Notes: generated by a model from the sequence alone, not told the origin. 32,000 nucleotides of DNA from Candidatus Methylomirabilis limnetica (GCF_003044035.1 NZ_NVQC01000016.1:90001-122000), one strand, 5' to 3'. Numbered from the stretch's first letter, positions 5,508 through 23,419 are shown. A program made the numbers and translations.

Positions 5508-6140
5508 TCATAACGACCAGAGCAGCAGTGCGACGATGAGACTCGCAATTACGATCGCGACGATGGGCGCGACTCTTGTCAATCTCGATTGAGCGCTACT
5601 CTCCGAGGCAGAACGGGTAGTGCGATCTAGTGTAAGAAAATCCGTGGCCCCCGCTGTCCTGGGCCCGCTTCTCATCCGTACTTTTCGTCTGGCATTATAC
5701 TCTCGTCGCTTCTCCGGATCCTTGAGGACTGCGTACGCCTCGTTGAGACTCCAGCTCTGCTCGGTGATCCACCCCGTTGGGTCCTCGTACTTGTCAGGGT
5801 GATAGATGCGCATCTTTTCGATCCATTTCTCATGAATTGTATCGGCGGAGGCGTCCCGGTCCACATCGAGGATCGCGTAGTAATCCGCACTGGAAGCGAG
5901 GTGCATCGATGCGAGCAGTGCTTCGGCCTTCTGGACCAGGTGGCGGACATCGAGATGCTGGAGTTCTGCCGCATCGCGGAGTTCGGCGTAGCAGGGGGAT
6001 CTTAGGCCCTTCCGAATGTCCAGGAGGATGCTGGTCAGCTCTCGCCGATCAGGACACAAGGCGGAAAGGTCGGGAAGGGGCTTCGGCTGGGCCAGCCTGG
6101 TGATGATTTCCTTAACCCTGATCTCAGTTATACCGCTCAC
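5508..6140 (-). CDS. J-domain (DnaJ-like) protein with a C-terminal transmembrane anchor
   Basis: DYYAILDVDRDASADTIHEKWIEKMRIYHPDKY...LNEAYAVLKDPEKRREY is a J domain with the HPD motif. The C-terminal VAPIVAIVIASLIVALLLWSL is hydrophobic. The ORF-track start at 6395 overlaps the upstream gene. GTG 6140 (5 nt after that gene's stop) was chosen, so the start is uncertain (next ATG is 5906). Confidence 0.65.
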   Translation of the reverse strand: MSGITEIRVKEIITRLAQPKPLPDLSALCPDRRELTSILLDIRKGLRSPCYAELRDAAELQHLDVRHLVQKAEALLASMHLASSADYYAILDVDRDASADTIHEKWIEKMRIYHPDKYEDPTGWITEQSWSLNEAYAVLKDPEKRREYNARRKVRMRSGPRTAGATDFLTLDRTTRSASESSAQSRLTRVAPIVAIVIASLIVALLLWSL

Positions 6141-6145
6141 GCTGC

Positions 6146-7597
6146 TTACAAATGCTCTGACTGACCATTGGAGCCTCGTCCTGAGGCCGTGACGCGGGCC
6201 GCGTTGAGGGTGACGGAAAGCACTGTGACCGTGACGATGGCATTCGCTGGGATGTGTAGGTTGAAATCGGTTAGGCTGTGAATAAGCATCGCAAACACGG
6301 CGGTCATACCGGCTAACGCCATGTACTCTGCAAGAGGATCGTGTCGCCTCAACCACCTGGCGGTCACCTCTCGATACCACACGACTATGAACCACACAGC
6401 AAGACCAAAGGCCACGACGCCCCCCTCAGCCAGCAGTTGCAGGTAGTCATTGTGGGCGTACTGGAAGATCATCTGGGCAGTGGAGGTCTTGTACGCCGGG
6501 AACACCTCCTCAAAGGTGTTGAAGCCCGAGCCAAAGCGCACGTAATCGTTCGACATCCGCAAGGTATCCCGCCACAGGATCGCTCGTTCTTCTGTGGATG
6601 GCTCCTGAAATGTCTTCTCGAGCCGTTCCAGTGACAGGAATGCACTATTCCCACCAATCCAGACCGCGGCGATCAGGACGAGGCCACAGCAGGCCAGGGC
6701 CAATCGTACCACCCGTGAACGCGCAGTTCGCTTCATGACCGCCATGATGATGAAAAAGACCATGGAGCCCGAGAAACTTATGAGGCCGCCGCGCGAGCCG
6801 GTCAGCAGGAGTGCTGCGCCCATAAAGATCGCAGCGAAAAGTAGGAGTATCGACTTGCTGGTGTGTTGGGACGTCCACAGGAGGAGCCGTTCCCTGATAG
6901 ACAGTCGATCGGTACGCAAGGGCGACTGAGCCAGGATATAGCCGATGGTCAGGGGGATGGCGATCTCCATGTAGCCGGCGAAGTGATTGCGGTTGACATA
7001 GGGACCGAAGGGCTCGCCGCCTTGCGCGGTCTCGCGGATCCAATAGATCTTGCCATTCGACGAATACTTTTGAATGATCGCGAACACCGCCAGGAAAAAC
7101 CCAACACCGATGATGGTCACGACAACCCTCTCGATCTGCTTTCGCTCTCGCAAGTAGTTGAGCAAGATCCAGAACAGTATGGCGTAAGTCAGTAGCCTCA
7201 GAAGCTCTTCACGAGTGGCGCCCGGATTAAGCGAGATCGTCCGCCACCCCACCTGGATGTTGAGGGCAGATGCGGCATCACTGTAGACCGAGTACGCTGC
7301 AGGCGAGAGCATTTTGATCGTGTTCAGGGGCAACGGAAGCATCTGGAAGAGTATCAGCGCCAGGAAGGAGAGGATCAGGAGGGTGAACGGTGTCCGCTCG
7401 AATTGTATCTGTCCATCACGGATCATTTGAGCGACCCAGACGGTCCCCATAACGAGCACCAGCAGTTCAGCAAGCGCGATCGACCAGACCTCAACGGTGC
7501 CAAAGGCAAGCGGTGTGAACAGGAGGAGAATCGTCAGCGCCCACAGGAGAAGGCGGTCGGACCACATCACCGGGTGGGTATCACCCTGTTGATACAT
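6146..7597 (-). CDS. O-antigen ligase / O-antigen polymerase (Wzy_C)-like polytopic membrane protein
   Basis: About 10-12 hydrophobic segments and a central loop ...YVNRNHFAGYMEIAIPL... typical of the O-antigen ligase family. The ORF-track start 7771 lies inside the upstream epimerase gene. Likely starts are ATG 7597 (MYQQGD..) or ATG 7567 (MWSDRLLL..). Confidence 0.75.
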   Translation of the reverse strand: MYQQGDTHPVMWSDRLLLWALTILLLFTPLAFGTVEVWSIALAELLVLVMGTVWVAQMIRDGQIQFERTPFTLLILSFLALILFQMLPLPLNTIKMLSPAAYSVYSDAASALNIQVGWRTISLNPGATREELLRLLTYAILFWILLNYLRERKQIERVVVTIIGVGFFLAVFAIIQKYSSNGKIYWIRETAQGGEPFGPYVNRNHFAGYMEIAIPLTIGYILAQSPLRTDRLSIRERLLLWTSQHTSKSILLLFAAIFMGAALLLTGSRGGLISFSGSMVFFIIMAVMKRTARSRVVRLALACCGLVLIAAVWIGGNSAFLSLERLEKTFQEPSTEERAILWRDTLRMSNDYVRFGSGFNTFEEVFPAYKTSTAQMIFQYAHNDYLQLLAEGGVVAFGLAVWFIVVWYREVTARWLRRHDPLAEYMALAGMTAVFAMLIHSLTDFNLHIPANAIVTVTVLSVTLNAARVTASGRGSNGQSEHL

Positions 7598-8579
7598 GCA
7601 TCGCCCATTCGCGGTTGGCTTGATACCATCGCACCAGCGCGCCGACGCCATCCTGGAATGTCGAGTGCGGTTGCCAATCCAGTAATCGCCTGGCTTTGCT
7701 GATGTCAGCCCAAGTCGCCGATACGTCGGCTGGATGACGGGCGGTGTTGACGATGACCGCCTTCTTCCCAATTAATGCTTCAATGAGCCGAATCGCATCC
7801 ATCAGGACAACGGGCGCGTCGGAACCCAGGTTGATGACCTCATATCCCAGCGGCTTGAGGCCGGCGATCGTACCTCTGGCGATATCGTCCACGAAGGTGA
7901 AGTCGCGGGATTGTTGGCCGTCGCCATACACCAGTACCTGGTGCTCTTCGCTGATCCACTGCACGAAGCGAAAGAGGCTCATATCAGGTCGCCCGGAGGG
8001 ACCGTAGACGGTAAAGTACCGAAAAACCGTCACGTCGATCCCGTACAAGTAATGATAGGTATAGCAGAGTGTTTCGGCGGCCTTTTTGGAGGCGGCGTAG
8101 GGCGAAAGGGGGGCGTCGGTATTTGCGTCTTCCCGGTAGGGCAATTGGTTGTTTTGGCCGTACAGGCTGGAGGTGGAGGAGAGGATAAATTTGTTGATGC
8201 CGAGTGTCCGGCAGAGGTCCAACAGATTGAGCGTCCCGGTGACGTTGGTGTCGTAGTACACCCAGGGGTCTTCAACGGATTGGCGTACGCCGGCGCGAGC
8301 AGCCAGGTTGATAACGGCGACTGGACCGCGACCATGGGGTCCACATGCTGCCTCAAAGGGCGCGCTCAGAGCCGCCCGGTCGCTGATGTCGAGCTGGTGG
8401 AACTGAAAGCTGGGATGGTGGAGGATCTGATCGAGGCGCCGCTGCTTGAGCCGGACGTCATAGGCGTCGTTGAGGTTGTCGATCCCGACGACGAGGTGGC
8501 CGGCATGGAGGAGCAACTCGGCGACCTTGCAGCCGATGAAGCCCGCACAACCTGTCAGCACAACGGTCCTTGGTTCCAA
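7581..8579 (-). CDS. NAD-dependent epimerase, UDP-glucuronate 4-epimerase-like
   Basis: VLTGCAGFIGCKVAELLL Rossmann motif, YAASKKAAE catalytic YxxxK, 332 aa. Resembles CapI/LpsL-type UDP-GlcA epimerases (recall). Confidence 0.85.
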   Translation of the reverse strand: MEPRTVVLTGCAGFIGCKVAELLLHAGHLVVGIDNLNDAYDVRLKQRRLDQILHHPSFQFHQLDISDRAALSAPFEAACGPHGRGPVAVINLAARAGVRQSVEDPWVYYDTNVTGTLNLLDLCRTLGINKFILSSTSSLYGQNNQLPYREDANTDAPLSPYAASKKAAETLCYTYHYLYGIDVTVFRYFTVYGPSGRPDMSLFRFVQWISEEHQVLVYGDGQQSRDFTFVDDIARGTIAGLKPLGYEVINLGSDAPVVLMDAIRLIEALIGKKAVIVNTARHPADVSATWADISKARRLLDWQPHSTFQDGVGALVRWYQANREWAMHVSTG

Positions 8580-8720: not shown

Positions 8721-8807
<87 letters not shown>

Positions 8808-8863: not shown

Positions 8864-9018
8864 GTAACCATTCAGTTAGGGGTGGAAAATCTCCCCTAAC
8901 CCCTCTTTTCCAAAGAGGGGGACTAACCGTTTCCCCCTTTGAAAAGGGGGATTAAGGGGGATTTTATAAAAATACCACATTTTATTTAATGATTTGCGCC
9001 CTCTCACTGAATGGTTAC
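8864..9018. repeat. 155-bp element bounded by perfect 13-bp terminal inverted repeats, carrying three G/C-tract hairpins (MITE/REP-like)
   Basis: gtaaccattcagt (8864-8876) and actgaatggttac (9006-9018) are exact inverted repeats. Inside are the hairpins ttagggg..cccctaa, cccctctt..aagagggg and cccccttt..aaaggggg, then gggggattaaggggg, a module also seen at 30367-30380. Confidence 0.55.
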
Positions 9019-9930: not shown

Positions 9931-12552
9931 ATGGCAAACAACAAGATTCTTATTCGGGGTGCGCGAGAGCACAACCTTCAGTCGATTGACCTGGAGATCC
10001 CTCGGGACAAGCTTGTGGTCATCACCGGCGTCTCCGGCTCCGGGAAGTCGTCGCTGGCGTTCGACACCATCTATGCCGAGGGTCAGCGTCGCTACGTCGA
10101 GTCGCTTTCTACGTACGCCCGTCAGTTCCTGGAGCAGATGGATAAACCGGACGTAGACCTGATCGAGGGGCTCTCGCCGGCGATCTCCATCGAGCAGAAG
10201 ACCACCAGCAAAAACCCCCGTTCGACCGTGGCGACAGTGACGGAGATCTACGATTACCTCCGCCTCCTGTTTGCCAGGGTGGGTAAGCCGCACTGTTACG
10301 CCTGCGGTAAGCCGATCGCGTCCCAGACGGTGCAGCAGATCGTGGACCAGGTGATGGCACTGCCGGATGGAAGTAAGTTCCAGGTCCTGGCCCCGGTCGT
10401 GCGAGGGCGGAAGGGGGAGTACCGCCAGGTCTTCGCTGACCTGCGCCGGCAGGGATTCGTCCGCGTTCGTGTCGACGGTAAGCCTCGGGAATTGGAAGAG
10501 TCGATCGAGCTGGACAAAAATAAGAAGCACACGATCGAGGTGGTGGTGGATCGGCTCGTTCTGAAGGCGGATATTCAAAAACGGCTGGCTGATTCGCTCG
10601 AGACCGCGCTCAAGCTCAGCGAGGGGATTGTGGTAGTCAACCTCCTCGATCCGTCGAAGGATCTGACCTTCTCCGAGCGCCTGGCCTGCATCGACTGTGG
10701 CGTCAGCTATCCGGAAATCAGCCCTCGCATCTTCTCCTTCAATAGCCCGCACGGCGCCTGCCCCACGTGCGACGGCTTGGGCACGAAGCTGGACGGACGG
10801 ATGGACGATCTCCCGGGTATCCTGGAGCCGTGGCACGGTAAAGCGAACATCCACTATCTGGACCGCCGCTATAAGGAGACCTCTTCATCCAAGGTGCGGG
10901 AAGAGATTGAAGACTACGTCAAGCACTTGGCCAACGTCCGCCCCTGCCCGGATTGTCAGGGGACGCGCCTGCGGCGGGAGTCACTGGCTATCAAGGTAGA
11001 TGGCAAGTCGATCGCGGACGTGACGCATTACTCGGTCAAGGCGGGGCTGCGGTTCTTCCAGGACCTACAGTTCAGCGAGAAAGACCATGAGATCGCCCGC
11101 CGCATCCTGAAGGAGCTACGGGAGCGTCTGACGTTCCTCGTGAACGTCGGCCTCGACTACCTGACCCTGGACCGGACTGCGGCCACCCTGGCCGGCGGAG
11201 AGGCGCAACGAATCCGCTTGGCGACGCAGATCGGTAGCTCACTGGTCGGCGTCCTGTACATCCTGGACGAGCCCAGCATTGGCTTGCATCAACGGGATAA
11301 TGTCCGCCTCCTGGATACCCTGAAGCGGCTCCGCGATTTGGGGAACACGGTCCTGGTTGTGGAGCACGACGAAGAGACGATCCGTCTTGCCGACTATGTC
11401 ATCGATATGGGCCCAGGGGCAGGGGTTTCTGGTGGGCGAGTCGTGGCGTGCGGGAGCCCTCGGGACATCATCAGACATAAGAGTTCGCTGACCGGTCAGT
11501 ACCTGTCGGGACGCATGACGATTCCTGTTCCTGCCCTTCGACGGCGAGGGAACGGGCGCGTCCTCACCATCATCGGAGCGCGAGAACATAACCTCAAGAA
11601 CATCGAGGTGGAGATCCCCCTGGGTGTGTTGACCTGCGTGACGGGCGTGTCCGGTTCCGGGAAGAGCACCCTGGTGAACGAGATCCTGCGGCGGGCGCTC
11701 GATCGCAAGCTCTACGGCTCTCGGGAGCGACCGGGAGCGCACGACAAGATTCTTGGCGCCGAGCATATCGACAAGGTGATCGATATCGATCAGTCGCCCA
11801 TCGGCCGCACCCCCCGCAGCAACCCGGCGACCTATACGGGCGTCTTCAATTTCATCAGGGAGCTGTACGCGCTGGTTCCGGAATCGCGTATCCGGGGCTA
11901 CAAGCTTGGCCGCTTCAGTTTCAATGTCAAGGGCGGCCGATGTGAGGCCTGCCAGGGCGACGGGCTGATCCAGATCGAGATGCACTTCCTCCCAGATGTC
12001 CACGTCACCTGTGATATCTGCAAGGGGGCCCGCTACAACCGGGAGACGCTGGAGATTATCTATAAGGGCAAGAGCATTGCCGATGTATTGGATATGACCG
12101 TACAAGAGGCGCTGGCCTTCTTTCAGCCTGTCCCCAAGATCAAGGAGAAACTTCAGACCCTTTTTGATGTTGGTCTTGGCTACATTAAACTGGGCCAGTC
12201 GGCCACGACGCTCTCTGGCGGTGAGGCGCAGCGAGTCAAGCTGTCGCGGGAACTCAGCAAGCGAGGGACCGGCCAGACCCTGTATATCCTGGATGAGCCG
12301 ACCACCGGGCTGCACTTCCACGATATCCGCCAACTCCTGGAGGTCCTGCACCGCCTGACCGATGCTGGCAACACCGTCGTAGTGATCGAGCACAACCTCG
12401 AGGTGATCAAAACGGCTGACTGGATCATCGACCTGGGCCCGGAGGGCGGCGATGAGGGAGGGCATGTCGTCGTAGCAGGCCAGCCGGAGGAGGTGGCCGC
12501 CCATCCGACCTCCTACACCGGCCAATTCCTGGCACGCACCCTGAAAGGCTAA
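9931..12552 (+). CDS. uvrA: excinuclease ABC subunit A (UvrA), 873 aa, with a shortened insertion domain
   Basis: N-terminal [52 protein letters not shown], two Walker A sites (GVSGSGKS twice), two LSGGE signatures and Zn modules CYAC/CIDC, CPTC/CPDC, CEAC..CDIC. Confidence 0.95.
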
Positions 12553-12794
12553 GAGGGGTAGAGACCACGCGTGTACCCGCCACTTTTTGGCGCAACTCAT
12601 CAACCCGCCGCCGACCCTTTCACCCCAGCACCCCACTGCGAAAGTCGACTCCTCAGGAGAATCTATGGGTAGATTCTGGCCCGGGTAAAGCGCCAAGCGT
12701 ATGATGCAAGGCGATTTCAGTCGCATGATAGGTTCGAGAACCATACGCTTTTCTGGTAGTCAGTTTCGCTTTGGTGCTAAAACCCTCCACCTCT

Positions 12795-12938
12795 CTATGT
12801 CTGGCGGTTCACCTCTACCCCCAGGATGTCAGAGGCTTTTGTTTGGAGTTCTACCAATGCCTCGGCCCGCTCTGCTCTGGCTCTGAGCCGCGCCTTCTCC
12901 CTATCCCTATCCCTCTCCATCACCGACACGTTCCTCTC
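12795..12938 (-). pseudogene. possible transposase coiled-coil fragment (family uncertain)
   Basis: Minus-frame ...MERDRDREKARLRARAERAEALVELQTKASDILGVEVNRQT* resembles the leucine-zipper/ELQKK-type N-terminal segments of some DDE transposases. Recall only. No complete ORF. Confidence 0.2.
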
Positions 12939-13145
12939 CAAGTGATCTTTTCCCCTTGGTGTCGGCCCCCGTTGCTTGGGCGTAAGTCATGTGACCTCAC
13001 CCAAAAATAGAGATCGCCATAGCCGAGACACTGCTATACGCCGATCACCGCCGTTTTACGACCTCATGACATATGATGTACCCCGAAAACCGGACAGGGG
13101 GGGGGTGAGTGAGAATCTTCCGTGTCTGGAGTATCACCAGAGTAG

Positions 13146-13330
13146 GTGCGGATCATGACGAGAAGTCTCAGACGGCAACACAGTGAGGAGGTCAAGGCGT
13201 GGGCAGTGTTGGAGGCGCATCCAGTCCAGATGAGCCAGTGGAAGAAGCTAGCGAAGGAGGGTCTTCAGGATCTGTTCTCTCGACGGAAAGACTTGTCCAT
13301 CAAGGCGGAAGCAGAATTATCAATTCGACG
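13146..13330 (+). pseudogene. IS3-family OrfA (HTH transposase) remnant with an internal deletion
   Basis: RRQHSEEVKAWAVLEA / HPVQMSQWKKLAKEGLQDLFSRRKDLSIKAEAE matches the IS3 OrfA pattern FSPEFKAKVALEAL...VHPNQISQWKRQLLEG..FS (recall). The HTH core between the two blocks is missing, and there is no OrfB/DDE part. Confidence 0.45.
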
Positions 13331-13722
13331 GCGTCGTCGTGGTCGGTCAGACGGTGATCGTAGCGCTGGACCTCACCCGCGACAGGGAGAAGAAGCTCCA
13401 TGGACTGACTGCCCCTTTGGTCTACGGAAATAACGCCGATTTCTTATAGGAAAGCGGCGAGGTTGTCGAACGGGTTCATCGCAGTCAGCGCATTGGGAAT
13501 AGGTGTGATCTCAGCTCCTTTTACGCTAGCACATGACACTTTATGTCATACGCAGTGCTACTTATTAGCAATAGCTCTCCCACTCTAAGCTAGTACGTAT
13601 TGGTAAGTAGCGGTTTTACTGCTGTTTAATTGTGGTCCAATCTTTGCAGATAGGCTTAAGTGGTTTACCTCTCGCAATGTGTTTTGTGGGTATCGGTGTC
13701 AACGAGAAGAAGAGACAGTTCA

Positions 13723-14118
13723 ATGAGATGCTTGGCGAATTTAAGCAGGTCGAAAAGAAACATTATGATCTGCTTGGTCGCACAGCTTGTATTTATCACA
13801 GGATGCGGACTTCATTCGGAAGTTCCGGCGATCTCAGGCGAAGTCAGTACGCCAGGGTTTGCACTAACTACATCCGCCGAGCACCGAGTGCATCTTTCTG
13901 GGTGGCTACACATCATCTGGAACGGTGAGCCTCGGTTCGTCCTTATTGACGACCAGGGTACGGCTACCCATGTTGTCATCGATGAAACTGTAGCCAAAAC
14001 CTTCGGAGGACCTAGAAAGCTGAATCAGAAGCGCGTGATCATTACAGGAGAGCGCATGGACGAGCCAATCGAGACGATCCGAGTTCTATCGATCGAAATG
14101 GGAAAGGATGGGAAGTAA
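13723..14118 (+). CDS. small lipoprotein, paralogous to the N-terminal domain of the downstream metalloprotease
   Basis: MRCLANLSRSKRNIMICLVAQLVFITGC has a basic n-region and an ITGC lipobox. The stop lies 2 nt before the protease ATG. Shared blocks with protease residues about 66-150: SG.LHI, L(I/L)DD, G.P..(L/I)NQ(K/Q)RV.(I/V)TG. Alternative start ATG 13765. Confidence 0.55.
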   Translation: MRCLANLSRSKRNIMICLVAQLVFITGCGLHSEVPAISGEVSTPGFALTTSAEHRVHLSGWLHIIWNGEPRFVLIDDQGTATHVVIDETVAKTFGGPRKLNQKRVIITGERMDEPIETIRVLSIEMGKDGK

Positions 14119-14120
14119 AC

Positions 14121-16397
14121 ATGCTAAAGGGAGAACAGATAATCAGGCAATGCCATAAACGTCTGCACGCAGCGCTCCTTCTCTTCACCTTCAGCTTGCT
14201 GTCGTTAACTCCAAGCACTATGTACGCGAACAGCGATACTCTCCCTGCGACGAAGGGGCTATCAAGGACCGCGCAACTGGCGAACAAGTCCCTGCTAAAT
14301 GTTGGGCCAACGGAAACCTTCTCTGGTCGGCTCCATATTCTCTATGGAGATGCTCCTTCTGGATCGGGACTCCCCCCGACCTCCGGTTACATGTTGCTCG
14401 ACGATCATGCTCGGGCCATCGAATTATTTTTTGGTGAGCAGGCACAGGGCCTTCTCGGGTCTCCAATGGAGATCAATCAGCAACGAGTCTCCGTGACGGG
14501 TCGAGCGGCCATCCTTCCGATTGCGAATGGTCACACGCCTGTGCCGCTAGTAACCGTCCAGGCGCTTCAACACGAGGGGTTGAAGCCTGCCGCCAACGCG
14601 GTGGCAGCGGCATTGGCCGTGAGCGGGTCCCAGCCTTGGGCAACGCTTCTGTGTCGATTCAAAGATTCTGCAGAGGTTACGCCACATCCTGTCGAATGGT
14701 TTAAAACCCTCATGTTGGGTACCTCCGCTCCAGGGTTGGAACACTATTGGAGAGAACTCTCCTTCAATAACGTCAATCTCGCCGGTAGCGCGGTCTACGG
14801 GTGGTACACGCTTCCTAACCCACGCTCCTATTACGTCTCTGGAAGTCCCGAACAACTTAACCACCAAAAAGCTGCCACCGACTGTACGGCCGCCGCGAAT
14901 CCTGATGTGTTATTCCCAACGTTTGTCGGCATCAACCTCATGTTCAATGGTCAGCTTGATGGCTACGCCTGGGGGGGAAGCTGGACCATGACGCTAGACG
15001 GGGTTACTAAGTCTTTTCGCATGACATGGCTTCCCCCATGGGGATATGAGAACCAGGGACCGGTTGGACACGAAATGGGGCATGGATTTGGGCTTCCACA
15101 CTCCTCCGGTGACTATGGCCAGACCTATGATTCCCGGTGGGATGTCATGAGCGATATTTGGGACAACTGTAGGGTATCGCGTGATCCGATTTACGGATGT
15201 GTCGGTCCCCACACGATCTCCTACCACAAAGACTTCCTTGGGTGGGTCCCAAGCGCTCAGAAGTATACCGCTAGTCCCAACACAGATCAAACCATCACCA
15301 TGGATCACATTGGCCAACTCGCGTCAGGGACCAACTATCTGATGGCGCAGATTCCGATCAATGGGTCGACGACCCAGTTCTATACGGTTGAGACTCGACG
15401 CCTTGTGGGATACGACGCGAAACTCCCGGGTGAGGCCATAGTCATTCATCGCGTCGACACGGCCCGGTGGGATTCGGACGCACAAGTGGTCGATCCAGAT
15501 AGAAACGGTAATCCAAACGATGTGGGAGCAATGTGGGTGACGTCCGAGACCTTCGTCGACCCGACAAACGGCATTTCCGTCTCAGTACTCTCCTCTACAG
15601 CCACGTCGTTTGTGGTGCGAATCATGCTCGGCGACGCAAGACCGCCTTCGCCAGATCTGGTGATGTTTAATGTGGTCAATCCGCCGGCAACCGTTGCGAT
15701 GGGTGGCAGCTTCTTGACTGGCGACTCCATCTATAACTCGGGAACGGCAGCAGCAGGAGCATCAACTACCCGCTACCGACTGTCCATAGATGCGACCATC
15801 ACCGGCGGAGATATCCTCTTGACCGGCACTAGGAGCGTTCCAAGCCTAGCAGCAGGGATCAGCCACAGCGGTAGCGTGACCGTCACAGTACCTACGAGCG
15901 TTCCAGTGGGAACCTACTTCCTCGGTGCCTGCGCTGACGATCTCGGTGCTATCATAGAATCCAACGAGACGAATAACTGTCTCGCCTCGAAGACGACGAT
16001 CCAAGTGCAGGCTGTTCCAGCGCGACCCGACCTAGTGGTCAGTAAACTCAGCTTCAAGATAACCGCTGTGCGGAGAGGCGCCAGATTGACGGTGACCGAC
16101 ACCACCAAGAACGCTGGATCAACGGCAGCAGGAGCATCAACTACCCGCTACCGACTGTCCATAGATGCGACCATCACCGGCGGCGATATCCTCTTGACCG
16201 GCACTAGGAGCGTTCCAAGCCTAGCAGCAGGGATCAGCCACAGCGGTAGCGTGACCGTCACTGTACCTACGAGCGTTCCGGCGGGAACGTATTATCTCGG
16301 TGCGTGCGCTGACGATCCCGCTGTGGTGGCAGAAGCGAACGAGGGCAACAACTGTTTGGTCTCCAACAACCCGAAGCAGATCATAGTACGGAATTAG
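14121..16397 (+). CDS. secreted zinc metalloprotease (M6/InhA-like domain, HExxHxxGxxH motif) with two C-terminal CARDB domains
   Basis: Signal-like N-terminus. ATLLCRFKDS...LEHYWRELSFNNVNLAGSAVYGWYTLPNPRSYY resembles the M6-family domain. Zinc site is GHEMGHGFGLPHS. Two 125-aa units PDLV...NETNNC / PDLV...NEGNNC fit CARDB. Confidence 0.85.
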   Translation: MLKGEQIIRQCHKRLHAALLLFTFSLLSLTPSTMYANSDTLPATKGLSRTAQLANKSLLNVGPTETFSGRLHILYGDAPSGSGLPPTSGYMLLDDHARAIELFFGEQAQGLLGSPMEINQQRVSVTGRAAILPIANGHTPVPLVTVQALQHEGLKPAANAVAAALAVSGSQPWATLLCRFKDSAEVTPHPVEWFKTLMLGTSAPGLEHYWRELSFNNVNLAGSAVYGWYTLPNPRSYYVSGSPEQLNHQKAATDCTAAANPDVLFPTFVGINLMFNGQLDGYAWGGSWTMTLDGVTKSFRMTWLPPWGYENQGPVGHEMGHGFGLPHSSGDYGQTYDSRWDVMSDIWDNCRVSRDPIYGCVGPHTISYHKDFLGWVPSAQKYTASPNTDQTITMDHIGQLASGTNYLMAQIPINGSTTQFYTVETRRLVGYDAKLPGEAIVIHRVDTARWDSDAQVVDPDRNGNPNDVGAMWVTSETFVDPTNGISVSVLSSTATSFVVRIMLGDARPPSPDLVMFNVVNPPATVAMGGSFLTGDSIYNSGTAAAGASTTRYRLSIDATITGGDILLTGTRSVPSLAAGISHSGSVTVTVPTSVPVGTYFLGACADDLGAIIESNETNNCLASKTTIQVQAVPARPDLVVSKLSFKITAVRRGARLTVTDTTKNAGSTAAGASTTRYRLSIDATITGGDILLTGTRSVPSLAAGISHSGSVTVTVPTSVPAGTYYLGACADDPAVVAEANEGNNCLVSNNPKQIIVRN
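15750..15904 (+). repeat. intragenic near-identical repeat, copy 1 (core of CARDB domain 1)
   Basis: 153 of 155 nt are identical to 16125-16279 (offset 375 nt = 125 codons). Flanking parts of the two CARDB units are strongly diverged. Confidence 0.9.
16125..16279 (+). repeat. intragenic near-identical repeat, copy 2 (core of CARDB domain 2)
   Basis: See 15750-15904. The only mismatches are ggag/ggcg and cacagt/cactgt. Confidence 0.9.
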
Positions 16398-16468
16398 GGT
16401 CAGCGCGAACTTGATTCTTCGCGGTGTCCGGAGGAAGTGACCTACACGGCGTGGGACTTAGGACCATT

Positions 16469-16512
16469 CGCCAAGGTGGAATCTGTCGATGGTTGCAGAT
16501 TCCACCTTGGCG
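16469..16512. repeat. perfect 17-bp-stem hairpin (10-nt loop) downstream of the protease gene
   Basis: cgccaaggtggaatctg (16469-16485) and cagattccaccttggcg (16496-16512) are exact inverted repeats. There is no T-run on either side, so it is not a canonical intrinsic terminator. Confidence 0.85.
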
Positions 16513-16794
16513 TCAGTATGGAGCGTAGAGCTTCCTCACTTACGGATGCTGGACTGATCAAGATCGCTTTTCAGGCGGTACCAGCACGGGCCCATAAAGT
16601 CCGCATGAAGAAACGAAGGCATAGTGTGGACAGTATGCGCGGGCAGGGTGGAGAGTCAATAGTAGTGTGGGAGCACGCGCGGTGCGGCGCCGAGGCCGAT
16701 CTGAACACCGACGCGGACCTGTTGTGCTGCGAGCCGGGCCGCACGTCGGCAGACCGCTCCGATCGCGATGGTCGTACCCGTTTGCGTACATTCT

Positions 16795-17100
16795 TACAGG
16801 GTCAGTGTCGTCATCAGGGACAGGGTCATCAAGACGGGGCACGATGACCCTGCCCGACATCTCAGGCGATGCGTTGGCTGAAGAGACGCGCACACCTCTG
16901 CTCCCACAATCCGAGATGGCGAAGGATGCGCTCGATGCCCTGCCCCGGAGACCCGCCGCTATTAATCCCCGTGATTTCGGTGTCAAGTTCTTCAATCTGA
17001 CCCCCTTAGGGCGCACAAACCCCAGCGTGACCCGGCCACGGCCCTGAGGAGCGTGTTCGCGCAGTAGAGGAACACGGGTCCCGAAGTTGTCCTTAGGTGA
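16795..17100 (-). pseudogene. IS91-family (HUH/Y2 rolling-circle) transposase C-terminal remnant, with in-frame stop and frameshifts
   Basis: Minus-strand frames give ..ANTLLRAV.. / CAP*GGQI...ITGINSGGSPGQGIERILRHLGLWEQR / ..PRLDDPVPDDDTDPVRMYAN. These match my recollection of the IS91-type tail (WA.LL.RVF..D...CP.CGG.M.IIAFI....I.KIL.HLGLW....DDP.PD.D). The N-terminal two-thirds are absent. Recall only. Confidence 0.35.
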
Positions 17101-17405
17101 CCGTACCGGCGCGAGGCTCTACCCCGAGTTCTTCCAACGCGACAAGGCGTTGGCTCGTCGCGATCCTCCTCGCCCTCCTATGGCAAGACCGCCACCTTAC
17201 CCGTCGGGTACGTCTTCCTGAGGACCTGGCAACGGCATGTCCCGCCTGAGCACCCCCTCTAAACTGAAGTTCCTGCCAGCGCATAGCGAACGTTCCCTGT
17301 CTTTTCCGTTGATTAGCGCAAGAGTGGGGTTGTATTTTCTGTCTACACGTTGATCTGCTGAATCTGTTCGAGTGCACGCTTTTGCGTTGGGTTGAGGCTG
17401 GTGAT

Positions 17406-17909
17406 GACGCTGGAGATTATCTATAAGGGTAAGAGCATCGCCGGCGTCTTGGACATGACCGTGGAAGAGGCGCTCCGCTTCTTCCAGCCTGTCCCCAAGA
17501 TCAAGGAGAAACTCCAGACCCTGTTTGACGTCGGGCTTGGCTATATATCACACTGGGCCAGTTGGCCACGACGCTCTCGGGCGGTGAGGCGCAGCGGGTC
17601 AAGCTGTCGCGGGAACTCAGCAAACGAGGGACCGGCCAGACCCTGTATATCCTGGATGAGCCGACCACCGGGCTGCACTTCCACGATATCCGCCAACTCC
17701 TGGAGGTCCTGCACCGCCTGACCGATGTTGGCAACACCGTCGTAGTGATCGAGCACAACCTGGAGGTGATCAAGACGGCCGACTGGATCATCGACCTGGG
17801 CCCGGAGGGCGGGGATGAGGGAGGGCATGTCGTCGTAGCAGGACAGCCGGAGGAGGTGGCCGCCCATCCGACCTCCTACACCGGCCAGTTTCTCAAGCGG
17901 ATGCTTTAA
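17406..17909 (+). pseudogene. uvrA: displaced 3' end of uvrA (last ~168 codons), frameshifted
   Basis: Aligns end to end with 12045-12530 of the intact uvrA. A 2-nt indel patch at 17539-17557 (ggctatatatcacactggg vs ggctacattaaactggg) splits it into ORF-track frames 17392..17721 and 17562..17909. No 5' 2.1 kb. Confidence 0.9.
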
Positions 17910-17917
17910 GGGTAACT

Positions 17918-17946
17918 ATTCAGGTGTTTAGGCTGAAGGCTGTTAG
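17918..17946. repeat. REP-like arm (gtttaggctgaagg family), just downstream of the uvrA 3' pseudogene
   Basis: attcaggtgtttaggctgaaggctgttag aligns with 30855-30883 (cttaggcgtttaggctgaaggttgttagg) and with the reverse complement of 9879-9912. Confidence 0.6.
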
Positions 17947-18247
17947 TCATTGCGCATGGACCAAATCAAGGCACCCAGAACCTTTTCGGTCTCCATCATT
18001 GTCGCGTTGTATTCGGAAACGCTTGGCTCGTCTGTGCGTGTTCCCACAGTCTAAAAGACTACAGTCTATCTACCTAAGTAGTTATCTTTGAGGTTGAGAT
18101 GTCCAAGTGACAGTGCGACCCCTTTTGCCTCGTCCTTCGTGGATTTCTTACGTCTGCGCATCCAGGACCGCGATCTGACCCAGACTGTGGTTAAGCTGGC
18201 GGAGGCGGGGACCACGCCGTCTGCTGCAGACAGTGCCGAACCAGTCG

Positions 18248-18553
18248 CTATGCACGTACCGGAGCAGGCTGGTAGCGCCGGACACGGATCGTACGCTCGC
18301 GCTGACGCGCTTGCGCGATATCGTAGGACGATTGCATGCGCATGAGCGTCTCCATGTCCACACCGAAGGCTTTTTCGAGACGTAGTGCCATGTCGCCGGA
18401 AAGGGAAGCCTTGCCGTTGAGCAAGCTGGACAGCGCTGGCCGGCTCACACCCAATGTCTGTGCGGCAGCAGTCACGGTCAAGCCGTGCGCGTCGATGATT
18501 TCGGTACGAATAAAGTCGCCCGGATGAGGCGGGTTCAACATACGCATCGTCAT
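18248..18553 (-). CDS. higA: HigA-family antitoxin (XRE-type HTH), module 1
   Basis: MTMRMLNPPHPGDFIRTEIIDAHGLTVTAAAQTLGVSRPALSSLLNGKASLSGDMALRLEKAFG is the typical HigA/VapI HTH. It lies 8 nt downstream of the toxin gene. Confidence 0.85.
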   Translation of the reverse strand: MTMRMLNPPHPGDFIRTEIIDAHGLTVTAAAQTLGVSRPALSSLLNGKASLSGDMALRLEKAFGVDMETLMRMQSSYDIAQARQRERTIRVRRYQPAPVRA

Positions 18554-19220: not shown

Positions 19221-19238
19221 CCGCTGCGTGTAAAATAG

Positions 19239-19532
19239 AAAATAGGGACAGACACTATTATCGTGACGATTCGTGGTGTTCGCGGTCATGATCGGCATGC
19301 CACGGATTACTCGAACCGTTGCAGCCAGCCACCCGTAGCATGTGAGACAACGAGGGAATTAGCACCAGACGGTCTTTCAAAACGACAGCGATGCGAAGGC
19401 ACACGATGACAGAGCGGCCACTGCAAAGAGACGGGTTCATCTGGGAGGTGCGCAGGACACTGGACGAGTAAGACACGTGGTGCAGAGGGGAAGACCAAGA
19501 AAGGATCTCAATAAATAGTGTCTGTCCCTATA
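19239..19532 (+). mobile_element. 294-bp TIR-bounded non-coding element (MITE-like), copy A
   Basis: Left end is aaaatagggacagacactatt and right end is aatagtgtctgtccctat (inverted). It differs from copy B (offset 1163 nt) at 5 positions by hand alignment. No credible ORF. Confidence 0.75.
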
Positions 19533-19661: not shown

Positions 19662-19964
19662 ATGCACATCATTTCACTGAAGATGCTGCGTGACTTCTGG
19701 CACAGGCATCCTGAAGCCGAGCAGTCTTTGCGCAACTGGCACACCGTCGCCGAGAATTCTCGCTTTGCTGACTTTGCTGATCTACGGCAGAGCTTTTGTG
19801 GTGCCGATTATGTTCCGCCTTATACCGTGTTCGATGTCGGCGGCAACAACTATCGGGTTGTTGTCATCGTTCGCTACCGCGATGGCAAGATATTCGTGCG
19901 TTGGGTAATGACTCACCGGGAATACGACAACTGGTGCAAGCTTTACAGGAAAGGCAAGGTGTAA
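19662..19964 (+). CDS. higB: HigB-family mRNA interferase toxin (E. coli HigB/YgjN type), module 3
   Basis: MHIISLKMLRDFW...YTVFDVGGNNYRVVVIVRYRDGKIFVRWVMTHREYD parallels E. coli HigB (..VFNVGGNELRVV....YIREVMTHKEYD), from recall. Confidence 0.8.
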   Translation: MHIISLKMLRDFWHRHPEAEQSLRNWHTVAENSRFADFADLRQSFCGADYVPPYTVFDVGGNNYRVVVIVRYRDGKIFVRWVMTHREYDNWCKLYRKGKV

Positions 19965-19966
19965 AC

Positions 19967-20395
19967 ATGACAACCGCTACTGCGACTCTGGACATCAAGG
20001 CGCTGCAAAAGACTTGGGCCGCGTTTGATCGCGTCGCCCATTTGCGTCCGATCCGTACCGAGGAAGAGTATGACCGTACTGTTTCGCTTATGAACTATCT
20101 GTTGGACATGGTCGGCGACCGGGAGAATCACGCCTTGTCAGGGCTTCTTGATCTCGTCAGCGAACTGGTGGCGGACTATGACACCAACCACTTCGCCATC
20201 GAAGCTTCCGAACCCAATGAGGTTTTGCGCTACCTGATCGAATTACGCGGTCTGAAGCAAGGTGATCTGGCGGAGATCGTCCCACAGAGCAACCTTTCAG
20301 CGATTCTTTCCGGCAAGCGAAAGATCAGCGCAACCCTGGCGGGGAAGCTGGCCAAGTTCTTCAACACCAGCCCAGCGGTATTCGTGCCTGGCTAA
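19967..20395 (+). CDS. higA: HigA-family antitoxin (E. coli HigA/YgjM type, C-terminal HTH), module 3
   Basis: ATG 19967 lies 2 nt after the toxin stop. The C-terminal LRYLIELRGLKQGDLAEIVPQSNLSAILSGKRKISATLAGKLAKFF is an XRE HTH. The ORF-track start 19796 lies inside higB. Confidence 0.8.
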   Translation: MTTATATLDIKALQKTWAAFDRVAHLRPIRTEEEYDRTVSLMNYLLDMVGDRENHALSGLLDLVSELVADYDTNHFAIEASEPNEVLRYLIELRGLKQGDLAEIVPQSNLSAILSGKRKISATLAGKLAKFFNTSPAVFVPG

Positions 20396-20401
20396 ATAGG
20401 G

Positions 20402-20695
20402 AAAATAGGGACAGACACTATTATCGTGACGATTCGTGGTGTTCGCGGTCATGATCGGCATGCCACGGATTACTCGAACCGTTGCAGCCAGCCACCCGTA
20501 GCATGTGAGACAACGAGGGAATTAGCACCAGACGGTCTTTCAAAACGACAGCGAATCGGAGGCACACGATGACAGAGCGGCCACTGCGAAGAGACGGGTT
20601 CATCTGGGAGGTGCGCAGGACACTGGACGAGTAAGACACGTGGTGCAGAGGGGAAGACCAAGAAAGGATCTCAAAAAATAGTGTCTGTCCCTATT
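20402..20695 (+). mobile_element. 294-bp TIR-bounded non-coding element (MITE-like), copy B
   Basis: Same orientation as copy A. The TIR extends to 21 bp here (aaaatagggacagacactatt / aatagtgtctgtccctatttt, through 20697). It starts 7 nt after the higA-3 stop. Confidence 0.75.
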
Positions 20696-21022: not shown

Positions 21023-22210
21023 GTGACCCGTCTCGCCCGCTTTTACGTGTGTGCCACCGCCCTGCTCCTTGCCTGCGCGCTCGCCCCGGCCTTTGCCGCT
21101 GAAGCCGCCACTCGCTTCGTCGCCACCACAGGTAGTAACGCCGGGCCAAATACTTGCCTCGCATCCGGGTCACCCTGCAAAACGATCACCTACGCCCTCA
21201 TCACCCAGGCCGTGGCCAACGACACGATCTCGGTCGCGGCCGGGACCTACAATCCCGCCCTGGGCGAGACCTTCCCCCTCGTGATCGCCGTCAACCTGAC
21301 CCTCACCGGCGCGGGTGCGCCTGGTACGATCATTGATGCCGGAGGGACGAACCAGGTAGTCCAGAACAACTTCGCGACCGTGACCATCTCGGGGGTGACG
21401 ATCACGGGCGGCGATTTCGCCCAAGGTGGTGGTCTCTCCAACTTCGGCACGCTCACCCTGACGAACAGCACCGTGAGCGGGAATACGGCAAGCTGCGCGG
21501 CAACGACACTCTCCTGCTTCGCCCAAGGTGGAGGCATCTACAACAACGCCGGCACGCTCACCCTCACCAACAGCACCGTGAGCGGGAATACAGCAAGCTG
21601 CTCGGCCAGCGGCAGCGGCAACGGATGCCGCGCCGAAGGCGGCGGCCTCTACCTCAACAGCGCCACGACCCTTGCGAACAGCACCGTGACCGCGAACACG
21701 GCGAGCTGCACCACCAGCGCGGGCGCCTCCTGCAGCACCGGCGGCGGCGGCACTTTCAGCGATGGAGAAGGAACATCGGTCCTGAGCCTCGGGGCCACGA
21801 TTGTCGCGCTCCAGCTCGCGGGGGCGGACTGCGACGGCGACGCCAGCACCTCGAACGGCTTCAATCTTGACAGCGACACCACTTGCGGCCTGTCCGGGAC
21901 TGGGGATCAGTCGGGGGTGGTAAACCCCCTTCTCGGGCCCCTCCAAAACAACGGGGGGCCGACCAACACCCACGCGCTCCTCACCGGGAGCCCCGCCATC
22001 GACGCCGTGACGAGCGGCTGCCCGCCGCCTGCCACCGACCAGCGCGGCATCACGCGCCCTCAGGGTCCCGCCTGCGACATCGGGGCGTATGAGGTCCAAA
22101 CGGCGGCGGCCGGCATCCCCACCCTGTCCGAGTGGGCCCAGATCGGCATGGCGGCCCTGCTCGTGGGCGGCGGGTTGCTCGCCCTCAGACGGAACAGGCA
22201 GCTATCGTGA
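21023..22210 (+). CDS. secreted parallel-beta-helix repeat protein with a choice-of-anchor-Q-like region and an IPTL-CTERM sorting signal
   Basis: GTG 21023 has AAGGAG 9 nt upstream. Signal peptide is ..LLLACALAPAFAAEA. There are NSTVSGNTASC repeats and TDQRGITRPQGPACDIGAYE. The C-terminus is IPTLSEWAQIGMAALLVGGGLLALRRNRQLS, that is motif, TM helix and basic tail. Confidence 0.85.
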   Translation: MTRLARFYVCATALLLACALAPAFAAEAATRFVATTGSNAGPNTCLASGSPCKTITYALITQAVANDTISVAAGTYNPALGETFPLVIAVNLTLTGAGAPGTIIDAGGTNQVVQNNFATVTISGVTITGGDFAQGGGLSNFGTLTLTNSTVSGNTASCAATTLSCFAQGGGIYNNAGTLTLTNSTVSGNTASCSASGSGNGCRAEGGGLYLNSATTLANSTVTANTASCTTSAGASCSTGGGGTFSDGEGTSVLSLGATIVALQLAGADCDGDASTSNGFNLDSDTTCGLSGTGDQSGVVNPLLGPLQNNGGPTNTHALLTGSPAIDAVTSGCPPPATDQRGITRPQGPACDIGAYEVQTAAAGIPTLSEWAQIGMAALLVGGGLLALRRNRQLS

Positions 22211-22251
22211 GGACTGACTAAACGCCGTGGGCTGACGTCTCTTTTTATCCC

Positions 22252-22764
22252 ATGCGCACCATACCGCAGCAGAATCTCCTGAAGCAGCAACAGGGCCTGT
22301 ACTTCTGCCTGCGCTTCGGCCTCTACACCCTGCTTGCCTTCCTGTTCCTGTATGCCCTGGACGATCGGCTCGTCGTGCCGTTTACCCGTGTCATCGCCTG
22401 GCTGTCCCACACCCTCCTCACGATCCTGGGTGCCCGAAGCTGGGTTGCAGGCGCCTCCGTCGGCATCCCCGGCTTTGCGGTCGAGATCAAGAACAACTGT
22501 AACGCGATCTATGAGATCGGCCTGTACGCCTCAGCGGTCTTCGCCTACCCCGCGACCCTCACGCAGCGCATCCTCGGATGTCTCTCAGGCGCAGTTGTGC
22601 TGTTCCTGGTCAACCTCCTGCGCGTGCTCAGCCTGATCGGCATAGGCCGGTACTTTCCTGGAGGGTTTCAGATTGCCCACCTCTACCTCTGGCAGGCCCT
22701 TTTCCTCGCCCTCGTCGCCGCCTGCTGGCTTATCTGGCTTAGCCGGATTCGCAGACTCGCTTAG
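22252..22764 (+). CDS. short exosortase-family transpeptidase (exosortase H-like; subtype inferred from the adjacent IPTL-CTERM substrate)
   Basis: 170 aa, polytopic. Candidate catalytic residues are Cys83 (VEIKNNCNAIYEIG), Arg124 (VNLLRVLS) and His143 (FQIAHLYLW), in the Cys...Arg...His order of exosortases/archaeosortases. It starts 42 nt after the substrate gene. Confidence 0.7.
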   Translation: MRTIPQQNLLKQQQGLYFCLRFGLYTLLAFLFLYALDDRLVVPFTRVIAWLSHTLLTILGARSWVAGASVGIPGFAVEIKNNCNAIYEIGLYASAVFAYPATLTQRILGCLSGAVVLFLVNLLRVLSLIGIGRYFPGGFQIAHLYLWQALFLALVAACWLIWLSRIRRLA

Positions 22765-23419
22765 AGCGTCCTGGCGGGGCTTCATCCTCCGTGCAGGCTC
22801 CCTCTTTATCCTCCTCGCGTTGCTGTGGGTTGTCCTCGCACCCGCCTACGCCCACCTGCTCGCGGCCTTCGCCTCCCCCCTGATCCCCTCGATCGAATCC
22901 TCCCCCGGCACTCGCTATCTTGTGGAGGGCACCACCATCATCGCCGTGCGCCCCATCATGCGGCAGACCTCCGAGACGGTCACCGTCAGCCGCCTCCTAC
23001 TGCGAGATACCTCCGGCGACTACCCCCTGGCCCTCCTGGCCGCGCTCGTGTTCGCGACCCCGGCCTGGTCACTCACGCGACGGGGCAGAGTCTTCGCCGT
23101 GACCGTGGGCCTGCTCATCCTCACCCAGTTCCTCTCGTTGCTGGTCAATATCGAGTACACCAAGCTATGGCCGCAGAAGACCGCAGCCGGCATTGTGGTC
23201 TCTCTCGACTACTCGAAGGCGAAGATGATCCTGTTCGATTGGCTCTACGCCTTCCTGGAGTTCATGGGGAGGGGCTTCTTTGCGCTGCTGCTCTACTTCG
23301 GGGCCATCGCCCTTGTGTGGGGACGCCCGGAGCCGGGATCAATGAAGGGCTCAGTGGGCAGAAACGAGCCCTGCCCCTGCGGAAGCGGCATCAAGACCAA
23401 GCGGTGCTGTGGGAGGTGA
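22673..23419 (+). CDS. polytopic membrane protein with a C-terminal SEC-C metal-binding motif (exosortase-associated by position)
   Basis: The ORF ends ..GRNEPCPCGSGIKTKRCCGR (SEC-C motif). There are about 5 hydrophobic segments. The start is uncertain. TTG 22673 overlaps the exosortase gene by 92 nt. I see no ATG or GTG in frame near the exosortase stop, and TTG about 22820 would trim the first helix. Confidence 0.55.
   Translation: MPTSTSGRPFSSPSSPPAGLSGLAGFADSLRASWRGFILRAGSLFILLALLWVVLAPAYAHLLAAFASPLIPSIESSPGTRYLVEGTTIIAVRPIMRQTSETVTVSRLLLRDTSGDYPLALLAALVFATPAWSLTRRGRVFAVTVGLLILTQFLSLLVNIEYTKLWPQKTAAGIVVSLDYSKAKMILFDWLYAFLEFMGRGFFALLLYFGAIALVWGRPEPGSMKGSVGRNEPCPCGSGIKTKRCCGR

Follow-up and report, generated by a model that had tools for sequence, protein, structure and literature searches.

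The 3′ end of uvrA occurs twice in a stretch of the Candidatus Methylomirabilis limnetica genome, once as the end of the working gene and once, 5.36 kb downstream, as a displaced pseudogene. This stretch (GCF_003044035.1 NZ_NVQC01000016.1:90001-122000; 32,000 nt, here called the window, with positions counted from its first letter) holds an intact uvrA whose last 508 nt, copy A, are followed by a 4.85-kb islet (12553-17405) and then by copy B, a 5′-truncated, frameshifted uvrA end that adjoins the flank found after the gene in relatives. One of the two ends comes from another strain, an islet-free allele with a hybrid of the two ends exists, and a second lineage carries a displaced uvrA remnant of its own. 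We propose that the islet is what remains of DNA that entered by a crossover inside uvrA, possibly at a core site used by a site-specific recombinase that has since been lost or acted in trans, and we give this reading a probability of about 0.45.

The repeated uvrA end

A repeat finder and alignment revealed direct repeats at 12045-12530 and 17406-17893 with 93.0% identity over 488 columns. Their offset is 5361 nt at first and 5363 nt beyond the TATATAT run at 17542-17548, where an inserted TA (2 nt) shifts the reading frame of copy B. The tails beyond the repeats can still be aligned, with 15 of 24 nt the same; the TAA stop of copy B corresponds to AAA in copy A and the next in-frame TAA is common to both, so the homology extends to 12552/17915. 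To the left of 12045 and 17406 there is no similarity at all, and the left edge of the repeat is sharp. A dif/Xer-type site was considered for the 24 identical nucleotides at this edge and set aside, as no likeness to dif was seen by eye.

With the insertion removed, Nei-Gojobori counting over 483 codon-aligned nt gave 32 substitutions, 25 synonymous and seven non-synonymous (six amino-acid differences), corresponding to a synonymous divergence (dS) of 0.24, a non-synonymous divergence (dN) of 0.020 and a dN/dS of 0.08. The synonymous divergence is uneven, at 0.50 in 12046-12228 versus 0.13 in 12229-12531. Because dS is this high and dN/dS this low, we conclude that A and B each ended a functional uvrA, in separate strains and under purifying selection, while they diverged. 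Copy A, though functional, has more unique changes than copy B; among the replacements in copy B, D718G and S757L are unique to it, and A812V is also found in some relatives. Past its frameshift, copy B retains a 115-codon open reading frame (ORF; 17562-17909) with the signature motif, Walker B and the C-terminus of ATPase domain II, which is called as a gene in the annotation of one other assembly (L081) and is probably a pseudogene.

Which of the two ends is resident can be read from their tails and flanks (relatives and retrieved contigs are given here by L numbers, related proteins by P numbers). Most UvrA proteins of the clade end in a tail of the copy-B type: P0003, P0122 and P0123 end exactly in FLKRML, and P0123 carries the whole copy-B haplotype save one V/I difference and the three replacements named above. 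The copy-A tail, FLARTLKG*, is absent from all 133 related UvrA proteins that we retrieved for comparison; in a scan of genome contigs with the UvrA C-terminus, only distant phyla were among the matches listed (best 82%). The ancestral flank downstream of copy B contains a remnant, at 18122-18205, of an antitoxin gene that is located 36 nt past the uvrA stop in L087 and L095, and the flank motif GGTTGAGATGYCCAAG recurs after uvrA in L102 and after the uvrA remnant of L101. The frameshift, the clade's usual tail and the post-uvrA flank of relatives together indicate that copy B is the displaced resident end.

Comparison with relatives also revealed a boundary at the left edge of the repeat. The window uvrA differs from that of its closest relative, L102, at three positions in 11461-12015 (0.5%) and at 21 in 12016-12264 (8.4%); this jump falls within ~30 nt of the repeat's left edge, and the imported tract therefore seems to begin there. 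Nucleotide diversity among six close lineages is 0.022-0.026 in 11769-12044 and climbs abruptly at 12045; nowhere else in the gene is it as high as in 12045-12228 (0.095 and 0.091), and in the middle of the segment it is lower (0.051-0.056). Divergence between L088 and L096 likewise jumps, at 12048-12055. These jumps at ~12045 suggest recurrent exchange with a fixed left boundary.

Within the segment, the closest relative changes from part to part. In 12045-12228, copy A is nearest to L096 (13/184) and copy B, which is L100/L088-like there, to L100 (9/184), as compared to 22/184 between A and B; in 12229-12524 both group with L088, and copy B is nearer than copy A to nine of nine relatives. 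We read the 3′ 508 nt of uvrA as a recombination mosaic across a clade of ~95-97% identity, and the donor of the imported end as a sister strain of this same Candidatus Methylomirabilis clade, not a distant lineage.

These results agree closely with much of a preliminary description of the window, made from the sequence alone. It had aligned the two ends end to end with a frameshifting 2-nt indel, had put the substitutions at about 30, roughly 20 of them synonymous and some five replacing an amino acid, had noted differing tails, and had suggested that the ends diverged under selection in separate genomes and that copy B is the native terminus; our counts are slightly higher, the tails proved alignable, the dN/dS for which it called is not near 1, and copies A and B share variant sites with different relatives. 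Its expectation that one end would group with a different lineage was not borne out in the sense of a distant lineage, both ends falling in the same clade.

The islet-free allele and a proposed route of entry

Searching with the exact HigA protein encoded at 18248-18547, we retrieved a contig, L111 (sample ERZ27287891), in which an intact uvrA runs straight into the copy-B tail, the adjoining miniature inverted-repeat transposable element (MITE) and the HigBA genes, with no islet. This is the empty site for which the preliminary description had suggested looking, a uvrA stop followed directly by the sequence from 17910 onward; in other relatives the corresponding interval is empty or differently filled. 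L111 differs from the predicted product of islet deletion at two sites in the central 3.3 kb (0.06%), and its uvrA is intact because the switch from copy-A to copy-B markers lies to the right of all copy-B defects. An islet contig, L091, comes from the same sample, so islet-bearing and islet-free alleles coexist. The two alleles are related by a single recombination between the repeats, which shows that the repeats recombine; on the simpler reading L111 arose by deletion through homologous recombination, the direction of the change not being provable.

A displaced uvrA end is also present in a second lineage. In L101, an 85-nt degenerate uvrA fragment (equivalent to window 12384-12468) with the uvrA stop and the usual flank lies just upstream of the gene for an NFACT protein, 1.7 kb downstream of the intact L101 uvrA and separated from it by two response-regulator genes. 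We interpret this remnant as an independently displaced uvrA end.

The order of an intact gene, an islet and a 5′-truncated, diverged copy, all with sharp edges, is what a single crossover would leave. In the history we propose, a DNA molecule that brought with it the last ~508 nt of uvrA from a sister Methylomirabilis strain would have been inserted through a single reciprocal crossover within the resident gene (a Campbell-type insertion), and the islet would be what its decay has left. A crossover at or near 12045-12068 would have fused the 5′ part of the resident gene to the imported end (copy A), keeping the gene intact, and would have moved the resident end (copy B) downstream by the distance given above, where it lost selection and gained the frameshift and its two unique replacements. 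The crossover would have been made by a site-specific recombinase whose gene was later lost or which acted in trans, with an attachment site resembling GACGCTGGAGATTATCTATAAGGG. The repeats may now also recombine homologously, so that the islet is lost and a functional hybrid uvrA, as in L111, remains. We favour a site-specific origin because of the sharp boundary at 12045 shared among lineages, the 24-nt identity that begins there, the peak of diversity at the edge and the recurrence in L101.

Several observations weigh against this reading. The islet yielded no integrase or recombinase domain (among its ORFs and in six-frame scans of 12553-13660 and 16398-17405, with Pfam for both and PHROGs for the second), nor did the intervals between uvrA and the NFACT gene of five relatives. 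A surrogate end of 508 nt would be unusually long for a site-specific system. The only recombination point observed, that of L111, lies away from the proposed core, and the L101 remnant, though degenerate, does not have the same left boundary. Moreover, copy A is a mosaic in its own right: it resembles L096 over most of 12045-12228 and has a patch at 12102-12123 that is common to L101 and outgroups. Over 12045-12228, A and B each show 16/184 differences from L102 and so match it equally poorly, so that native and foreign cannot be read cleanly from nearest neighbours. A call of native and foreign on that basis failed, each piece of ~100-200 nt having another closest relative.

The main alternative, which dispenses with an integrase, is that a circle from a sister strain, carrying a 3′ fragment of uvrA and 4.85 kb of downstream DNA, was inserted by RecA-type recombination of the host; the uvrA end would be a portable homology arm, the circle itself may have looped out from a similar pair of repeats, and the same homology would permit re-excision. 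The imported end, 93% identical to the resident one and from the same clade, fits this account, as do the failure to find an integrase anywhere in the hotspot, the recombination inside the homology at 12400-12410 seen in L111 and the mosaic within the 508 nt, which is what repeated homologous exchange would produce. It leaves unexplained, however, the founding event that made the circle and the 17405|12045 junction, and it predicts crossovers in the 103-nt identical stretch rather than in the outermost 24 nt, and a diversity peak in the middle of the segment, where diversity is in fact lower than at the left edge. Against it, too, no Y2/HUH transposase, as expected for rolling-circle (IS91/ISCR) capture, was detected by Pfam in six frames. 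We consider this account possible but on balance unlikely, and somewhat more doubtful still its extension to a population of small integrase-less islets, in which a ~0.5-kb uvrA 3′ end would be a portable arm for attachment and which Methylomirabilis strains would exchange, insertion and loss at uvrA both being due to host recombination. If that were true, each passage would swap part of the C-terminal ATPase module of UvrA between strains, which would account for the diversity peak from codon 706 and for the coexisting islet and hybrid alleles. Improbable, in our view, is an insertion of linear donor DNA in one step, anchored by homology at its left end near 12016-12069 and joined illegitimately at 17405 to the resident uvrA at 12045, thereby duplicating the resident end, or else a complex rearrangement mediated by insertion sequences (IS). 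Since the window alone has a substitution at 12016, the imported tract could begin before 12045, and ISL3 elements are active in sister strains and near the locus. By our own estimate, however, the two breakpoints would coincide by chance in only ~6% of cases (a ~150-nt interval in a 2.6-kb gene); the population-wide jump in diversity at 12045 and the L101 case would go unexplained, and at 17405 there is no IS end, inverted repeat or target duplication.

The remaining two explanations are far less probable. The window could be an assembly chimera of two co-occurring strains, given that these are metagenome assemblies, that contigs of other samples break inside the repeat (L091 starts at 12263, at the beginning of the 103-nt identical stretch) and that one sample holds both alleles. 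Against this, 22.6 kb of the window, islet included, is 99.98% identical in two other assemblies (L081 and L082), whose islet-bearing contigs of 158 kb and 85 kb have coverages of 24x and 684x; the 17405|17406 junction abuts unrelated sequences with no common stretch able to mislead an assembler, and partial contigs from two further samples (L083 and L091) are consistent with the islet arrangement. We regard a chimera as very improbable on these grounds. A local duplication of the uvrA end that diverged in place would account for direct repeats ~5.4 kb apart, yet it is scarcely credible: L111 is near-isogenic (0.06%) as compared to a dS of 0.24 between the copies and 0.50 in their first 183 nt, most of the differences are states shared with other lineages rather than new mutations, the functional copy has more unique changes than the pseudogene, dN/dS is 0.08, and A and B are not each other's closest relatives.

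Likeness to known systems

In Escherichia coli, e14 and phage 21 occupy the 3′ end of the housekeeping gene icd and leave the fragment icdC (PMC6379469, PMC13626634), and loss of e14 leaves a functional chimeric icd (PMC13626634). The uvrA locus resembles this case in its diverged, mostly synonymous replacement end and in the 5′-truncated displaced copy at the far side, and the hybrid uvrA of L111 is the counterpart of the chimeric icd. It differs in its target and host (uvrA in phylum NC10), in the length of the duplicated end (~508 nt versus ~163 nt), in having no integrase or phage genes, and in a hybrid junction that lies inside the homology and not in a defined core. Features typical of insertions that supply a surrogate 3′ end are nonetheless present: repeats of the target end flank the islet, the functional gene has an end from another genome, and there are empty sites, both in L111, where the hybrid uvrA leads directly into the copy-B flank, and in L098, where uvrA and the NFACT gene are 128 nt apart. 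By analogy, the islet may be a decayed or non-autonomous member of the e14/icd type at a new target, one from which the element-borne recombinase is missing. The preliminary description, which took the islet for an integrative element that had supplied a replacement end, is upheld in part, as regards the foreign surrogate end and the empty site; that it is an integrative element we only infer, because neither an integrase nor a remnant of one was found here or in relatives, and no intact islet was found.

Direct repeats of a target 3′ end also surround foreign cargo in islands at tRNA and transfer-messenger RNA (tmRNA) genes and in their integrase-less, att-flanked derivatives, the cis-mobilizable elements (CIMEs); decayed islands are often without int, and one site can accumulate several elements in succession. 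The repeats at uvrA share this arrangement but are far longer and diverged, and no integrase-bearing autonomous relative was found; the other inserts of the hotspot (toxin-antitoxin cassettes, MITEs and ISL3) look like independent insertions, in contrast to such islands. Reversible insertion-duplication is likewise familiar from Campbell integration of suicide plasmids and from the duplicated 3′ conserved segment (3′-CS) around ISCR1 in complex class 1 integrons. There, one crossover with a circle that bears part of a gene leaves an intact and a truncated copy on either side of the insert, and recombination between the two repeats undoes it. Here, too, one intact and one truncated copy flank an insert, with the differences that no IS91/ISCR transposase was found and that diversity peaks at the edge of the segment. 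Finally, an interval of 128 nt to 12 kb with varied cargo and raised recombination at the end of the adjoining core gene is characteristic of accessory-gene hotspots; ordinary turnover of a hotspot by double crossover, however, leaves no duplicated core-gene end.

In literature searches, we came across neither a description of attachment at uvrA nor a study of islands in Methylomirabilis. The architecture is itself textbook, as e14 in icd shows, and the finding is useful rather than surprising: it identifies uvrA, a core gene of nucleotide-excision repair, as an insertion site in a nitrite-dependent methane oxidiser, accounts for the breaks within uvrA in assemblies of these organisms, gives a strain marker, and offers a test case of whether the end of a core gene can act as an attachment arm when there is no dedicated integrase.

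Islet contents and the uvrA-NFACT interval

The window belongs to Candidatus Methylomirabilis (phylum NC10), its UvrA being 92-96% identical in amino acids to proteins named for the genus, and the gene order matches that of M. oxyfera (FP565575): sugar epimerases, Wzy/DnaJ and uvrA, then NFACT, Ppx, HNH and uvrB. The features discussed are collected in Table 1.

Table 1. Positions of the uvrA ends, the islet and neighbouring elements (window coordinates unless a contig is named)
Feature	Position	Strand	Remarks
Sister MITE	8864-9018		same family as the MITE after copy B; between tRNA-Leu(GAG) (8721-8807) and uvrA
Intact uvrA	9931-12552	+	873 aa; from the ORF list; Pfam UvrA_inter and ABC_tran
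Copy A	12045-12552	+	last 508 nt of the working uvrA; tail FLARTLKG*; putative imported surrogate end
Left-edge identical stretch	12045-12068 (= 17406-17429)		24 nt; candidate crossover or core site
Longest A/B identical run	12262-12364 (= 17625-17727)		103 nt
L111 switch interval	12400-12410		copy-A markers to 12399, copy-B markers from 12411
Copy A flank	12553-12646		94 nt; no counterpart in any fetched relative
ISL3-family remnant	12647-12790	-	terminal inverted repeat (12647-12673) and last 44 transposase codons
Unverified ORF	13146-13433	+	95 codons; no Pfam match
Cargo	13440-16397	+	upstream region, small putative lipoprotein gene, M6-like metalloprotease
Small putative lipoprotein gene	ends 14118	+	in the cargo
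M6-like metalloprotease	14121-16397	+	two CARDB domains (Pfam); homologues named M6 family metalloprotease-like
Right islet part	16398-17405		1 kb; right end joins copy B; no gene, repeat or homologue detected
Copy B	17406-17915	+	5′-truncated displaced uvrA end; pseudogene; tail FLKRML*
MITE	17912-18085		174 nt, at the copy B stop; terminal inverted repeats GTAACTATTCAGG and ATAACTACTTAGG
Ancestral post-uvrA flank	18094-18210		beyond the MITE after copy B
L101 remnant	L101 4574-4700		uvrA 3′ fragment, then ATGTTTTGA and the post-uvrA flank

The islet begins with the short flank of copy A, after which a remnant of an ISL3-family element starts 94 nt past the uvrA stop. This remnant matches a Paraburkholderia ISL3 transposase (tblastn, E 7e-13) and is 90% identical in nucleotides to full-length ISL3 elements in L110 and L112, the homology stopping at 12646. 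The idea that the ISL3 end encodes the tail of copy A was rejected, since the IS terminus lies at 12646/12647, at that distance from the stop. In the sister strains the full-length element (1.42 kb, with a 417-aa transposase; 1473-2890 in L110, and also in L112) sits at a site equivalent to 18077/18078 of the window, 8 nt inside the right end of the MITE that adjoins HigA. L110 and L112 share this junction, yet on the far side of the IS their sequences are unlike, perhaps through a rearrangement mediated by the IS or because sequences were joined across a repeat during assembly.

ISL3 is the sole insertion sequence verified in the islet. The preliminary description had spoken of IS3-like and IS91-like debris, for which Pfam gave no match in six frames at E<=1; the DNA past the ISL3 remnant, as far as ~13433, is debris that we could assign to no family. 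The 95-codon ORF may be the IS3-like fragment it meant (no coordinates were given there); a QWKK...LFSR stretch in it resembles IS3 orfA by eye only, and we list it as an unverified candidate. A composite or passenger transposon built on ISL3, which would have a terminal inverted repeat on each side and an 8-bp target duplication, also lacks its second end, only the inverted repeat of the remnant being present and none at 17405, and no terminal inverted repeats pair the left end of the islet with the right.

The nearest homologue of the metalloprotease is 73% identical in amino acids, and the two-gene module it forms with the lipoprotein gene recurs on an unrelated contig of 53% G+C (L107), with no uvrA or integrase nearby. 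The G+C content of the cargo is 0.47-0.56, as compared to ~0.59-0.62 in the flanks, in line with the lower G+C reported in the preliminary description; composition and phylogeny both point to a foreign origin of the cargo. For the right 1 kb of the islet, six-frame Pfam and PHROGs scans were empty, and neither blastn against plasmids nor comparison with the fetched loci gave a match. Viral contigs had no match for the right-arm junction (exact search) or for the protease, and the intact, integrase-bearing version of the islet that had been suggested as a check did not turn up through the loci of relatives or through searches with protease homologues.

The interval between uvrA and the NFACT gene varies widely in length, from 128 nt in L098 through 1.9 kb in L101, 2.9 kb in M. 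oxyfera, 3.3 kb in L103 and 4 kb in L105 to 12.1 kb in the window, and its cargo differs in every lineage examined. These comparisons indicate that the interval is an accessory-gene hotspot. At 21023-23419, the window carries within it genes for an IPTL-CTERM/DUF1565 protein, a SEC-C-motif protein and a 170-aa exosortase fragment whose match to the EpsH model is confined to the C-terminal half. None of the three occurs in this interval in L098, L101, L103, L105 or M. oxyfera; in L100, uvrA is likewise followed by a SEC-C ORF, a short one.

The MITE at the copy B stop is flanked by an 8-bp target duplication, CTTTAAGG (17904-17911) and CTTTGAGG (18086-18093), that includes the stop codon. Its end is the arm that the preliminary description had likened to a repetitive extragenic palindrome (REP) and had correctly assigned to the family found upstream of uvrA, where the sister MITE lies; the termini of the family, GTAACYATTCAG, gave three motif matches versus 0.14 expected by chance. 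Farther downstream, two direct repeats of ~294 nt (19238-19531 and 20401-20694; 98% identical, with inverted termini AATAGTGTCTGTCCCTATT of their own) bracket a HigB/HigA cassette (higBA, 19662-20395). L092, a lineage whose uvrA is only ~89% identical, also has the HigA region downstream of that gene, at 98% identity and in the opposite orientation; the same toxin-antitoxin pair is annotated downstream of uvrA in L103, and in L100 uvrA is followed by a lone ~300-nt repeat. The higBA unit thus looks like a MITE-flanked mobile toxin-antitoxin cassette that moves within the hotspot.

Two further observations concern uvrA and its upstream neighbourhood. UvrA is short in this clade, with 869-917 aa in the NC10 relatives listed, as compared to ~940 aa in E. 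coli, and the UvrA_DNA-bind (insertion) domain of Pfam matched the window protein only at the last ~20 positions of the model; the domain appears to be reduced or replaced in NC10. Upstream, at 5508-7771 on the minus strand, parts with a Wzy_C (O-antigen ligase-like) and a DnaJ domain lie in two adjacent or overlapping ORFs, as they do in L088, and form a single gene of 737-751 aa in M. oxyfera and L103.

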